From: a bacterium
Lineage (GTDB): Bacteria > Patescibacteriota > Saccharimonadia > CAILAD01 > JADZBC01
Assembly: GCA_020852295.1 (NCBI GenBank)
Contig: JADZBC010000009.1
Span: 104,628 to 168,627, forward strand
DNA length: 64,000 nt
Direction: 5' to 3'
Shown here: positions 29,757 to 35,363 of the stretch, piece after piece
How positions within the stretch are numbered: position 1 is the stretch's first letter
How the letters are laid out: every line of letters starts with the position of its first letter
Notes under the pieces: generated by a model
Databases searched by the model: none
Seen by the model: the letters and a program-made list of their open reading frames with translations, nothing else
What the model was told of the DNA's origin: nothing
Program-made: the position numbers and the translations under genes

Positions 29757-29758
29757 AC

Positions 29759-29785
29759 TTAGCACTCTTGACAGCCGAGTGCCAA
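29759..29785 (+). promoter_or_regulatory. CIRCE operator 1 (TTAGCACTC-N9-GAGTGCCAA) embedding a TTGACA -35
   Basis: Matches the HrcA-binding CIRCE consensus TTAGCACTC-N9-GAGTGCTAA with one mismatch. Confidence 0.8.
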
Positions 29786-29803
29786 TTTTCTAAACTATTC
29801 TTG

Positions 29804-29830
29804 TTAGCACTTAACCGACTTCAGTGCTAA
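29804..29830 (+). promoter_or_regulatory. CIRCE operator 2 (TTAGCACTT-N9-CAGTGCTAA), followed by TATGAT
   Basis: Second near-consensus CIRCE inverted repeat 45 nt downstream of the first. Confidence 0.8.
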
Positions 29831-29908
29831 TATGATATGCAAGGACGACAGTCCGGTGGCGCGCAGTTTGGTGTAAATCGGCTGCGCTACACCTAATAAT
29901 AATCCAAT

Positions 29909-30604
29909 ATGACACCACGCCAACACGATATATTGCAAGCAGTTGTTCGCCACTATGCCGACACGGCTGAGCCGGTAGGGTCACTGGCGCTTTCTGAGGC
30001 ATTTGGTGTCAGCCCAGCTACAATTCGTGCCGAAATGGCGACCCTTGAGCGTCTCGGCTACATTTACCAGCCACACACATCGGCCGGTCGTGTGCCGACG
30101 GACAAAGGCTATCGCTACTACGTCAACAGCATATCCCCAGACCAGCCCAAGGCTCGCACGGTTCAGACAATCGAAAAGCGAGTCAGCTCATTAAAAGACC
30201 AAACCGACCAAGCTATCAAGATCGCGGCCGAAACTCTATCTGAACTGACCGGCAACACCGCCTTTGCGACGTTGAGCGACAGTCTCTATTACTATGGACT
30301 CAATCAGCTTTTCTCACAGCCGGAGTTTGTTGATCAGATTCGCGCCAGTATGGCCGCTCGATTTTTGGACGCTATGCAAGACTGGCTATTCACGAGTCCA
30401 TTTGATGAGCCGATCGAAGTTTATATCGGTCGAGAAAACCCTGTTGTCGAGACCTCGGGCCTCACGACAGTGATCTCTCGTTTTGAGTCGCCATACTCAC
30501 GCAATAGCTACATCGGCATAGTTGGTCCAACCCGACAAAGTTACGGTAAAGTCATTAGCCTGGTCGATGCCGTCGGCCGCCAATTGGAGGAGGTATTAAA
30601 TTGA
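29909..30604 (+). CDS. hrcA: heat-inducible transcription repressor HrcA (short form)
   Basis: N-terminal wHTH (RQHDILQAVVRHYADTAEPVGS). First gene behind the CIRCE elements. Confidence 0.8.
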   Translation: MTPRQHDILQAVVRHYADTAEPVGSLALSEAFGVSPATIRAEMATLERLGYIYQPHTSAGRVPTDKGYRYYVNSISPDQPKARTVQTIEKRVSSLKDQTDQAIKIAAETLSELTGNTAFATLSDSLYYYGLNQLFSQPEFVDQIRASMAARFLDAMQDWLFTSPFDEPIEVYIGRENPVVETSGLTTVISRFESPYSRNSYIGIVGPTRQSYGKVISLVDAVGRQLEEVLN

Positions 30605-33005: not shown

Positions 33006-33368
33006 ATGGCTATCGCCACCGGACAGGAATTTCTAGGGAAGACGATCGAAGTTATCTTTGATCGTCCCCTGGGCTCCATCCATCCCAAGTACGACGACAT
33101 GATCTACCCAGTAAACTATGGGTATGTACCTGGTACGAAAGCCGGCGACGGCGATGAGATAGATGTATACTACCTCACTGGCGATAAGCCGCTAGAAAAG
33201 GTCACCGCCAAGTGTATTGGCTACGTTAGGCGACTTGATGACAATGACGATAAGCTCATTGCTACCGCGGGTGAGCTGTACACAGTGGAAGAGATCGAGA
33301 AAAAACTTGAATTTCAGGAAAAATGGTTCAAGCATGAGATAATTTTAGAGAGTAAGAGAAAAGATTAA
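33006..33368 (+). CDS. short family-I inorganic pyrophosphatase-like protein (120 aa)
   Basis: FDRP...YPVNYGYVPGT..GDGDEIDV aligns to the PPase core (FVDR, YP-NYGY, DGDPxDV). It lacks about 55 aa of the canonical enzyme. Confidence 0.55.
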   Translation: MAIATGQEFLGKTIEVIFDRPLGSIHPKYDDMIYPVNYGYVPGTKAGDGDEIDVYYLTGDKPLEKVTAKCIGYVRRLDDNDDKLIATAGELYTVEEIEKKLEFQEKWFKHEIILESKRKD

Positions 33369-34114
33369 TGAAAACAATTGTATTTATAGATGGTGAAAAC
33401 TTCGTTTACCAGATGCGTGACAGTCTCGCCAAACGGCGACTAATCAAGTACCGTGACGAGTTGGCGCGAGTTGATATTCGCAAGTTACTGAGTGATCTAC
33501 TGCAAGATCCAACCATGAAACAAAGCAAGATTTTATACTACGCAGCGAAAGTGCGGGTGGTTGATAATACGCCAGAACTCAAAGAGCGCACCGAGCGCTA
33601 TGCCACCGAAGCGGAAAAATGGAAGGCAGTGCTGGCCAGTCAGAACGTCGAATATATTGAGGCTGGCCATCTGTTGGTGCGTGATGGTAAGCCGTGTCAG
33701 CAGTGTGGCCACAAAGAGCCAGTTCTTACCGAAAAGGGTGTCGATGTACAGCTGGCTACCGATCTTATTCGGAGCTCGGGTGAAAATGTCCGACTTGTAC
33801 TGCTAAGCTCAGACGGCGACCTCATTCCGGCGGTTGAAGAATCCAAGCGTCGTGGAGCTGAGATCGTGTATGTTGGTTTTTATGGGGTGAGCAACAATAC
33901 ACTGGCCAATGCTGCGAGCCGTAAGCTCATCATCAATGGCAAGATTGCCGCTGCAGCACTCGGTCCTAAGCCAAAAGAAGAGGCGCCGCGCAGCCAAAAA
34001 GAAGGTACGTCGCGCAAACCACGTAAGTCACAGGGCCGTCCTAATTTTGCTGAAGACTCACTGATGGCCGCGATTGAACAGCAGCATACTCAGCATGATC
34101 ATGGTGATAACTAA
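33368..34114 (+). CDS. NYN-domain (LabA-like) protein with basic C-terminal tail
   Basis: VFIDGENF...GVDVQLATDLI...LLSSDGDLIPAV are the acidic residues of a NYN/PIN-like RNase fold. Confidence 0.65.
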   Translation: MKTIVFIDGENFVYQMRDSLAKRRLIKYRDELARVDIRKLLSDLLQDPTMKQSKILYYAAKVRVVDNTPELKERTERYATEAEKWKAVLASQNVEYIEAGHLLVRDGKPCQQCGHKEPVLTEKGVDVQLATDLIRSSGENVRLVLLSSDGDLIPAVEESKRRGAEIVYVGFYGVSNNTLANAASRKLIINGKIAAAALGPKPKEEAPRSQKEGTSRKPRKSQGRPNFAEDSLMAAIEQQHTQHDHGDN

Positions 34115-34123
34115 GAGGAAACA

Positions 34124-34462
34124 GTGGTAAAGCGAATTCATCATCGACTTTCGTATATTCTTCTCGCGATTAGCGCGCTGTATATACTTTTCGGGTTTAG
34201 TGCTATTGCCGCCAAGCGAGGACTGAATTACCGGCCAAACCCCACTGCCGCAGTTGACTTGGCCGACAGCGTAAAGCTCGATCGTGCGCGCTATGTGAAT
34301 GCCGTTGACTGGTTGCTCGATACGTCGAAAAATTCCCTTCCATTGACCGCTAATCATGTCGCAAGCTATGACCCGATCGATCTTAAGTTGGCCGGTGTAA
34401 TCTTTGTGGTGTCACTTGCTTCGCTTTTTGTACATAAGAAGATGGAGGTGCGCAGTGAGTAA
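34124..34462 (+). CDS. small hypothetical membrane protein
   Basis: ORF with 2 TM segments between the NYN gene and dnaJ. Confidence 0.4.
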
Positions 34463-35363
34463 GCGTGATTACTATGAAGTGCTTGGCGTCAGCAAGGGTG
34501 CAAGTAAGGATGAGATAAAGAAAGCCTTTCGCAAGAAAGCGATCGAGCATCATCCTGACAAAGGTGGTGACGAAGCGAAGTTTAAAGAGGTCAATGAGGC
34601 CTACGAAGTACTCAGTGACGACCAGAAAAAAGCTGCCTATGATCAATTTGGCCATGCGGCAGGAGCTGCAAATGCTGGAGGTCCTGGGGGAGGTAATCCG
34701 TTTGAGGGCTTCGACGGGCAGGGCTTTGGTGGTTTTGATTTCTCTGGTTTTCAGGGCGGTGCCGGCGGTGGTCTGAACGATATTTTTGATATGTTCTTTA
34801 CCGGTATGCGCAACCGAGCACGGGATGTAGAGGTGGCGCTGACCATTGATTTTGAAGAGGCTGTCCGTGGTACCACCAAAGAATTGAGCCTGCGCATTGT
34901 CAATAATCAAAAGCAGGAACGCGAGAATAAGACGGTCAAAGTTAAGATTCCAGCTGGTATCGACGACGGTCAATCGATCAAGCTCGCTGGTCACGGTGAG
35001 GTGAGTCCGAACGGCACTAAGGGCGATCTGTATGTCCATATTCGGGTGCGTCCAAGTAAGGAGTTTGAGCGAGAAGGTCCCCACATAATCTCGCGGCTGC
35101 ATATCGATATGATAGATGCAGCACTCGGTACGACGGCTGAGATCAATACCCTCGATGGTAAGGTGAAGATTAAGATTCCGGCAGGCAGTCAGCACGGCAA
35201 AGTCATCAAGCTGTCTGGCAAAGGCATGCCAGTTGTGCAGTCTGACCGACATGGCGATCACCTCATTGAATTGCTCGTCGATATTCCAACCAAGCTTAGC
35301 TCCAAACAAAAAAAGCTGCTTGAAGAGTACCGCAACGCTGGCAAAGGTCGCCATTTCTGGTAA
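34455..35363 (+). CDS. dnaJ: J-domain chaperone DnaJ lacking the Cys-rich zinc-finger domain
   Basis: GTG start with GGAGG 6 nt upstream. J domain DYYEVLGV...HPDK. G/F-rich region. C-terminal substrate-binding domains. No CxxCxGxG repeats. Confidence 0.85.

Follow-up and report, generated by a model that had tools for sequence, protein, structure and literature searches.

A predicted HrcA/CIRCE heat-shock operon of Saccharibacteria with a short repressor, a class B DnaJ and a NYN-domain gene between dnaK and dnaJ

Introduction

The hrcA-grpE-dnaK-dnaJ-yqeT-yqeU-yqeV operon of Bacillus subtilis is a class I heat-shock operon, transcribed from a sigma-A promoter and controlled by the repressor HrcA at its operator CIRCE (controlling inverted repeat of chaperone expression). 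Here we describe a related locus in a member of the Saccharibacteria (GenBank assembly GCA_020852295.1), contained in a 64-kb stretch of contig JADZBC010000009.1 (positions 104,628 to 168,627 of the forward strand) that we call the window; coordinates refer to positions within it. On balance we regard the locus as probably a class I HrcA/CIRCE heat-shock operon with lineage-specific parts, in which a NYN-domain gene would supply an endoribonuclease made under stress. The B. subtilis operon and the present one share the hrcA-grpE-dnaK...dnaJ order, the operator consensus, a vegetative-type promoter, an autoregulated hrcA in first place and the carriage of extra RNA- or ribosome-related genes. 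B. subtilis has a single CIRCE, downstream of its promoter, whereas here two bracket the promoter and the first encloses the -35 hexamer. Passengers of methyltransferase type come after dnaJ in B. subtilis, whereas those of the window lie between dnaK and dnaJ and include the NYN gene and a gene for a small pyrophosphatase-like protein (mini-PPase).

Individual parts of the locus also have described parallels. The DnaJ of Thermus thermophilus is a class B protein with no zinc finger, and CbpA of Escherichia coli, like the DnaJ of the window, combines a J domain, a Gly/Phe region and two C-terminal domains without one; the class B J-protein of the window is encoded in the dnaK operon itself, whereas in deeper relatives this position is taken by a class A DnaJ. 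HrcA of Thermotoga maritima (PDB 1STZ) contains about 100 residues without counterpart in the HrcA of the window. In comparison with LabA-like NYN proteins (PF01936/COG1432; PDB 2QIP) and the NYN domain of MARF1 (PDB 5YAA), the NYN protein of the window has no OST-HTH/LOTUS domain, and differs further in a Cys-x2-Cys hairpin insertion, a basic tail and its location in a heat-shock operon. E. coli Ppa shares with the mini-PPase a core barrel bearing Y-P-x-N-Y-G, D-G-D-x-x-D and the D97/D102/K104 cluster, but is 175 amino acids (aa) long as against 120. Finally, two CIRCE elements overlap the hrcA-grpE-dnaK promoter of Lactococcus lactis, an exception among lactic acid bacteria (PMC1676014); tandem CIRCE as such is therefore not without precedent.

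Results

Two operators bracket the predicted promoter. The whole window was searched for the 9-N9-9 inverted repeat TTAGCACTC-N9-GAGTGCTAA, allowing at most three mismatches and using 100 shuffles as control. An earlier note on this DNA, made by reading the sequence, had placed tandem CIRCE elements upstream of hrcA, and the search returned exactly these positions as the sole matches in 64 kb: CIRCE-1 at 29759..29785 on the + strand (TTAGCACTC-TTGACAGCC-GAGTGCCAA, i.e. TTAGCACTC-N9-GAGTGCCAA, spacer ttgacagcc, one mismatch) and CIRCE-2 at 29804..29830, also + (TTAGCACTT-N9-CAGTGCTAA, spacer aaccgactt, two mismatches). Shuffled sequences gave a mean of 0.03 matches, and none of the 100 held two or more. 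Both elements are predicted HrcA operators. A sigma-70-type promoter is predicted at 29768..29796 (+), with TTGACA at 29768-29773, a 17-nucleotide (nt) spacer and TAAACT at 29791-29796; it agrees at 10 of 12 hexamer positions and is the top promoter-like site in 29600-36100, tied with a site at 35908. Its -35 hexamer falls within the CIRCE-1 spacer, an overlap that the same note had recognised correctly, and the right arm of that element occupies the promoter spacer. Transcription is predicted to start at about 29803-29805, where CIRCE-2 begins. An alternative promoter within CIRCE-2 (TTAGCA-18-TAATAT) was rejected, as it agrees at only 8 of 12 positions and falls under the scan threshold.

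This arrangement recurs in relatives, whose loci are denoted by L numbers. Six loci (L089-L094) were picked through HrcA homologues alone, which avoids the bias of loci found through the NYN gene, and we refer to them as HrcA-chosen. All six carry the operator pair, the first element with 0-1 and the second with 2-4 mismatches; whereas the L. lactis pair is an exception in its group, in the Saccharibacteria clade the pair is the rule. Upstream of hrcA the relatives have a near-perfect CIRCE whose spacer starts with TTGAC(A), followed 5-6 nt past the right arm by TACAAT, TATAAT or TACACT, and a second, weaker CIRCE that starts 45-49 nt after the first. An equivalent of CIRCE-1 with TTGAC opening its spacer occupies the orthologous position in L001, L003, L008, L026, L030, L044 and L087-L094. 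The two-operator layout of the hrcA upstream region is thus shared across the clade. In deeper Saccharibacteria (L015, L018, L028, L029, L031) the operon is split, with one CIRCE before hrcA-grpE and a single or tandem CIRCE before dnaK. Furthermore, a CIRCE with embedded TTGACA stands upstream of an Hsp20/alpha-crystallin gene in L013 (5287-5815), L014 (10676-11204) and L019 (11035-11563). Across the phylum the motif is thus a marker of heat-shock genes, in support of its reading as an HrcA operator, and the predicted HrcA regulon of the phylum extends to the small heat-shock protein Hsp20. The features by which a class I regulon can be told from sequence, namely the CIRCE repeat, its conserved placement at a chaperone promoter and an encoded HrcA, are present; by analogy with described systems, HrcA would bind CIRCE and the operon would be induced by heat.

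Seven + strand open reading frames (ORFs) follow the operators, separated by junctions of -4, -4, 0, -1, +9 and -8 nt. They are hrcA (29909..30604; PF01628, PF03444), grpE (30601..31113; PF01025, 2.6e-41), dnaK (31110..33005; PF00012, 2e-269), the 120-aa mini-PPase-like gene (33006..33368), the NYN gene (33368..34114), a 112-aa ORF with two hydrophobic segments and no family match (34124..34462) and dnaJ (34455..35363; PF00226 and PF01556). The Pfam matches and tight junctions bear out the hrcA-grpE-dnaK operon proposed earlier. HrcA and grpE overlap by 4 nt (TTGA), as do grpE and dnaK (ATGA), dnaK and the mini-PPase gene abut (TAG directly before ATG), the mini-PPase and NYN genes share one base (TAATG), a 9-nt gap separates the NYN gene from the 112-aa ORF, and the latter overlaps dnaJ by 8 nt. 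The ATGA overlaps that the earlier note had reported between dnaK and dnaJ are accordingly not found there, but a true ATGA overlap does join grpE and dnaK. Similarly, the TTG at 34404 taken as the dnaJ start gives way to a GTG at 34455 behind GGAGG. Because the junctions lie between -8 and +9 nt and no terminator-like site occurs on the + strand of the scanned region, the seven genes are predicted to form a single transcription unit. Among relatives, the grpE-dnaK junction holds a 60-aa ORF in L088 (3326-3508) and a 97-aa ORF in L093 (7338-7631), neither with a family match; the dnaK-dnaJ gap is therefore not the sole junction that accepts extra genes.

The predicted 78-nt leader RNA is strongly structured, folding at -37 kcal/mol (z = -3.0). 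CIRCE-2 would form a 9-bp stem at its 5' end, and RNA folding together with comparison to L087 places a GC-rich hairpin further downstream (29855..29893, +). Between the window and L087 the pairing of this second hairpin is kept through one C-G to U-A double change; the hairpin is missing in more distant relatives, which have short leaders. A permissive Rfam scan of 29700-29960 gave no match, and hence no known RNA thermometer or leader, while a scan of the whole window at gathering thresholds returned only nine tRNAs.

In many Saccharibacteria the NYN gene, we propose, truly belongs to the HrcA regulon, although the operon can do without it. Its product matches PF01936 at 46.8 bits (cutoff 24.2), and its predicted structure (predicted local-distance difference test, pLDDT, 85.7) has a LabA/MARF1-type PIN-like fold with the conserved acidic cluster kept. 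Eighteen homologues, the most distant at 29% identity, all retain D8, N11, E122-K123-G124, D126, S147-S148-D149 and D151. Given this fold and these residues, on which the assignment is based, the protein is most likely a metal-dependent endoribonuclease; the earlier description of a NYN/LabA-like putative RNase with a Lys/Arg tail is upheld, its nuclease role as a prediction. The protein of the window carries a hairpin insertion with Cys-x2-Cys and a flanking His, and a disordered Lys/Arg-rich tail. L026, L030, L044, L089 and L091 have in this slot another NYN subtype of about 200 aa, which lacks both Cys hairpin and tail and is only about 36% identical. Against L087 the ratio of nonsynonymous to synonymous differences per site (pN/pS) is 0.20, which places the NYN gene under purifying selection. 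Within the otherwise disordered tail, residues 228-239 (window ~34049-34084) contain, as do the homologues P0005, P0009, P0018 and P0030, a short helical motif that reads EDSLMAAIEQQ in the window and TGSRLASMLP in relatives; it might be a docking peptide.

Homologues of the NYN gene sit in contigs of Candidatus Saccharibacteria, Saccharimonadia or Patescibacteria. In every NYN locus the gene is the passenger nearest to dnaJ, in most with no intervening gene and often with a 4-8 nt overlap, and it is found between dnaK and dnaJ even where DnaK is only 68-69% identical to that of the window (L015, L018, L028, L029, L031). In L016 and L031, where dnaK is absent or distant, the NYN-dnaJ pair has a perfect CIRCE about 150 nt ahead of it; L015 has CIRCE, a LysE-type gene, NYN and dnaJ in this order, and L010 has a CIRCE separating NYN from dnaJ. 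Its place next to dnaJ, together with a CIRCE of its own in some of the split arrangements, is the basis for assigning the NYN gene to the HrcA regulon where it is present. In a neighbour-joining tree of 85 NYN genes, those linked to dnaK or dnaJ share one half, and the NYN genes of other Patescibacteria stand apart from them. Unlinked NYN genes of Saccharibacteria showed no constant partner among their neighbours. A toxin-antitoxin reading of the NYN gene was discarded, given the lack of a constant small partner, the translational coupling to dnaJ and the purifying selection.

The dnaK-dnaJ gap as a whole is a variable slot with turnover of accessory genes. It contains the mini-PPase, NYN and 112-aa genes in the window and L087, mini-PPase and NYN in L008, L091 and L094, and mini-PPase, a 108-aa membrane protein and NYN in L005. 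A DUF5680 gene accompanies NYN in L003, and does so with two small membrane proteins in L006; L007 has Nudix and NYN, L088 two small ORFs and NYN, and seven loci (L001, L026, L028, L029, L030, L044, L089) NYN alone. The gap holds mini-PPase and DUF5680 in L090, mini-PPase alone in L093 and nothing in L092. NYN is thus present in three and the mini-PPase in four of the six HrcA-chosen loci. The synteny comparison that the earlier note had called for accordingly finds passengers that recur in a content that varies. Its remark that a NYN gene in a heat-shock operon is unusual holds for bacteria at large, but the association is not peculiar to the present genome, since it recurs before dnaJ across Saccharibacteria.

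One tract of the slot is conserved far beyond its surroundings. Over about 720 bp (window ~32780-33500, L087 3100-3820), comprising the last 225 nt of dnaK, the whole mini-PPase gene and the first 130 nt of the NYN gene, the two sequences are 98-100% identical, as against 65-93% in the remaining operon; sliding identity finds one other bin at 100%, a 60-nt stretch at 31820-31879. Synonymous differences per site (pS) between the window and L087 amount to 0.013 in the mini-PPase gene versus 0.6-0.76 in the flanking genes. The tract points to recent recombination across the slot, the alternative being an assembly chimera in the Logan contig of L087.

The mini-PPase belongs to a widespread family. 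The earlier note had described the gene as a truncated family-I pyrophosphatase; the likeness stands, with a PF00719 match of 47.5 bits (cutoff 23.5) and a D-x-D-x-x-D signature present as DGDEID, but the protein is not a local truncation. Its homologues number 484, and for the best 120 the median is 115 aa; NCBI names some of them inorganic diphosphatase. Family members lie in the dnaK-dnaJ slot of L005, L008, L087, L090, L091, L093 and L094 and also elsewhere in unrelated contexts (e.g. L085). The NCBIfam equivalog models for pyrophosphatase give only 40 and 35 bits, where 246 and 200 would be required. Residues were compared with an E. coli Ppa sequence whose numbering agrees with the known catalytic residues. 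Y51, Y55, D65, D70, D97, D102 and K104 (E. coli numbering) are kept, E20 is replaced by an invariant Asp, and the window protein also keeps D67, which is E, M or A in most family members. The full catalytic set (E20, K29, E31, R43, Y51, Y55, D65, D67, D70, D97, D102, K104, Y141, K142) is incomplete. We consider the protein PPase-like and probably a small phosphohydrolase.

HrcA of the window is short, at 231 aa versus 338 aa for the T. maritima protein, a feature that the earlier note had overlooked. The winged helix is well conserved (residues 3-77 align to 17-93 of 1STZ, E = 2.8e-17), and the GAF-like domain of canonical HrcA is present, but the third domain, the inserted dimerizing domain of about 100 residues, is not found. 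Overall, 220 residues of the 323-residue 1STZ chain could be aligned, and the predicted structure has a pLDDT of 81.9. TIGR00331 matches at 185.9 bits, under its cutoff of 197.2, and in two stretches, the first of which ends at profile position 123 of 338. Because the match breaks at this point, we infer that the missing residues, some 100 in number, are the dimerizing insert. An alignment to a B. subtilis HrcA sequence points the same way, and is taken as a lead only. Dimerization would then proceed via the GAF-like domain. The short form is not peculiar to the window, the best 120 homologues all measuring 218-272 aa. A literature search for HrcA in Saccharibacteria found none, its sole match being an unrelated Enterococcus paper.

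DnaJ has a J domain with HPD, a Gly/Phe-rich region and the C-terminal domains. It contains no cysteine, and hence none of the four CxxCxGxG zinc-finger repeats. TIGR02349 matches it in two stretches, the second at profile positions 209-352, skipping the zinc-finger region, and scores 279.6 bits against an equivalog cutoff of 377.2; the protein matches the 291-aa PRK14299 model over its full length, and residues 1-295 match positions 1-293 of 306 of a CbpA model. The lack of cysteines and the skipped region assign the protein to class B. The lack of a zinc finger described earlier is therefore real, but the architecture is an ordinary class B one. DnaJ proteins at the same position in L015, L016, L028 and L029 have 8-9 cysteines, 2-3 exact CxxCxGxG repeats and 364-377 aa, while those of L003, L005, L008, L044 and L088 have no cysteine and 297-305 aa. 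With a zinc finger in deeper Saccharibacteria and none in the present clade, its loss is placed within Saccharibacteria.

The 112-aa ORF before dnaJ starts at a GTG behind GAGGAAA. L087 has an ORF of the same length in the same place, 50% identical with a pN/pS of 0.47, and a non-coding reading of the ORF was rejected on this comparison; the small membrane protein gene postulated here earlier is thus coding. No other compared locus contains it, and it appears to be a young, fast-evolving, lineage-specific membrane protein gene.

Past dnaJ, a 168-aa membrane protein is encoded at 35399..35905 (+), 35 nt downstream with no + strand terminator-like site between. It is possibly, though uncertainly, part of the operon, and most related loci encode a homologue of 25-58% identity behind dnaJ. 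Next comes a strong promoter-like site (TTGACA-17-TAGTAT, 35908-35936) upstream of a RimK-type ATP-grasp gene (36010-36927), which is followed by two genes resembling glutamine amidotransferase (GATase)/peptidase C26 (cluster region 35908-38236); this cluster, together with the 168-aa membrane protein gene, comes after dnaJ in most related loci. On the other side, a 331-aa protein encoded at 28761-29756 (+) ends 2 nt before CIRCE-1. Its N-terminal half is coiled coil, and its GGDEF domain is incomplete, matching just positions 30-95 of the 161 in the Pfam model, but still contains the GGDEF motif; the protein is possibly a diguanylate-cyclase remnant, which would be unusual in so small a genome. 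Elsewhere in the window, three tRNA genes with a CAT anticodon lie within 10 kb (10503-10578, 18159-18234 and 20345-20421), presumably initiator, elongator Met and Ile2 (lysidine).

Discussion

We propose the following mechanism for the class I operon. One sigma-70-type promoter would drive the seven genes from hrcA through dnaJ, and possibly the next membrane protein gene too. HrcA bound to CIRCE-1, whose spacer contains the -35 hexamer and whose right arm lies in the promoter spacer, would block RNA polymerase, and HrcA on CIRCE-2, covering the start site and the first 27 transcribed bases, would form a second block. Once transcribed, CIRCE-2 would become a 5'-terminal hairpin. Following the established model of other bacteria, unfolded protein would titrate the chaperones and so lift repression, and all seven genes would rise together under stress. 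The NYN protein would therefore be made alongside the chaperones under proteotoxic stress, and the role that we prefer for it is RNA turnover or processing at such times, easing the load of new protein.

Several observations weigh against this account. For every part it is drawn from sequence and models. The NYN gene is missing in three of the six HrcA-chosen relatives (L090, L092, L093), and is therefore dispensable for the operon. Two NYN subtypes that are about 36% identical share the slot in close relatives, a pattern that fits passenger turnover as well as it fits a functional link, and the half of the NYN tree that contains the linked genes also holds about 12 unlinked Saccharibacteria NYN genes. 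The mini-PPase lacks part of the pyrophosphate-binding set of E. coli Ppa: E31 and R43 are gone with a deleted 17-residue hairpin, and the Y141/K142 region is missing or unalignable. The short HrcA would have to bind an inverted repeat without the dimerizing insert. Finally, bacterial LabA-type NYN proteins were without functional studies according to a 2017 review, which noted that bacterial NYN genes neighbour tRNA/rRNA-maturation or DNA-modification genes (PMC5499597). Our own search found no literature linking NYN to dnaK/dnaJ or to Saccharibacteria, and a TM7x transcriptome preprint makes no mention of the operon genes in question.

The variability of the slot suggests another explanation, which we consider unlikely but still a serious contender: the dnaK-dnaJ gap may be a permissive, recombination-prone site in a highly expressed operon, carrying hitch-hikers functionally unrelated to chaperones or heat shock. 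Content that varies by genome, down to the empty gap of L092, is what such a site would show. The near-identical tract around the mini-PPase gene likewise points to recent exchange, in which the dnaK and NYN ends could have served as homology arms, and the mini-PPase, found elsewhere in unrelated contexts, and the two divergent NYN subtypes sharing one slot sit comfortably with it. Random capture does not so readily explain why the same few families recur (mini-PPase in 4/6 and NYN in 3/6 HrcA-chosen loci), nor why NYN is always the gene nearest dnaJ and directly adjacent in most loci. Furthermore, the NYN-dnaJ pair is kept, with a CIRCE before NYN, in L016 and L031, where dnaK is elsewhere, and the NYN gene is under purifying selection.

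The stress-made endoribonuclease that we favour could also be part of something larger. The gap might constitute an HrcA-controlled RNA-decay module, in which the mini-PPase (or Nudix in L007) would prepare RNA 5' ends or remove a nucleotide alarmone and NYN would then cut the RNA, a proposal that we regard as doubtful. If it were true, proteotoxic stress would raise chaperones and lower translatable RNA from one promoter, and it would give a first physiological role both to a bacterial LabA-type NYN and to the ~115-aa mini-PPase family.

A narrower proposal confines the nuclease to its own transcript. NYN would cleave the operon mRNA ahead of dnaJ, or else at the hairpin formed by CIRCE-2, setting the DnaK:DnaJ ratio or ending the response. 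This would be akin to B. subtilis, where the dnaK operon mRNA is processed; CIRCE also affects mRNA stability. The position of NYN upstream of dnaJ in every NYN locus, adjacent or overlapping in most, would suit such a role, as would the 5' hairpin of CIRCE-2 and the second, conserved hairpin in the leader. However, the NYN-less loci L090, L092 and L093 keep operon, operators and dnaJ, and about a dozen related NYN genes are unlinked to dnaK or dnaJ; we consider this proposal improbable. Least probable is that NYN is no nuclease but an adaptor that binds nucleic acid or associates with chaperones and that would use its basic tail to hold DnaJ or DnaK at ribosomes or RNA; the long disordered Lys/Arg-rich tail with its recurring short helical motif and the example of cyanobacterial LabA, known just as a regulator and not an enzyme (PMC5499597), are outweighed by predicted metal-binding residues that none of 18 homologues has changed, even at 29% identity, as expected of an enzyme, and by a short NYN subtype that occupies the same slot without the tail.

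HrcA/CIRCE control of a dnaK operon is textbook knowledge, and the regulation proposed here is ordinary; nothing in it overturns current understanding. What is new is a minimal-genome rebuild of the system: HrcA is down to two domains, DnaJ is of class B, the operators form a fixed pair of which one encloses the -35 hexamer, and a slot repeatedly holds a predicted RNase and a mini-PPase. Taken together, the short repressor, the class B co-chaperone and the recurrent NYN/mini-PPase genes under CIRCE make up a lineage-specific variant, of which we found no description in the literature. The short HrcA raises a question of its own, namely how a repressor that lacks the known dimerization domain can recognise an inverted repeat. 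More generally, the conserved place of the NYN gene in the heat-shock regulon provides a concrete, testable hypothesis for the function of a bacterial LabA-type NYN protein.

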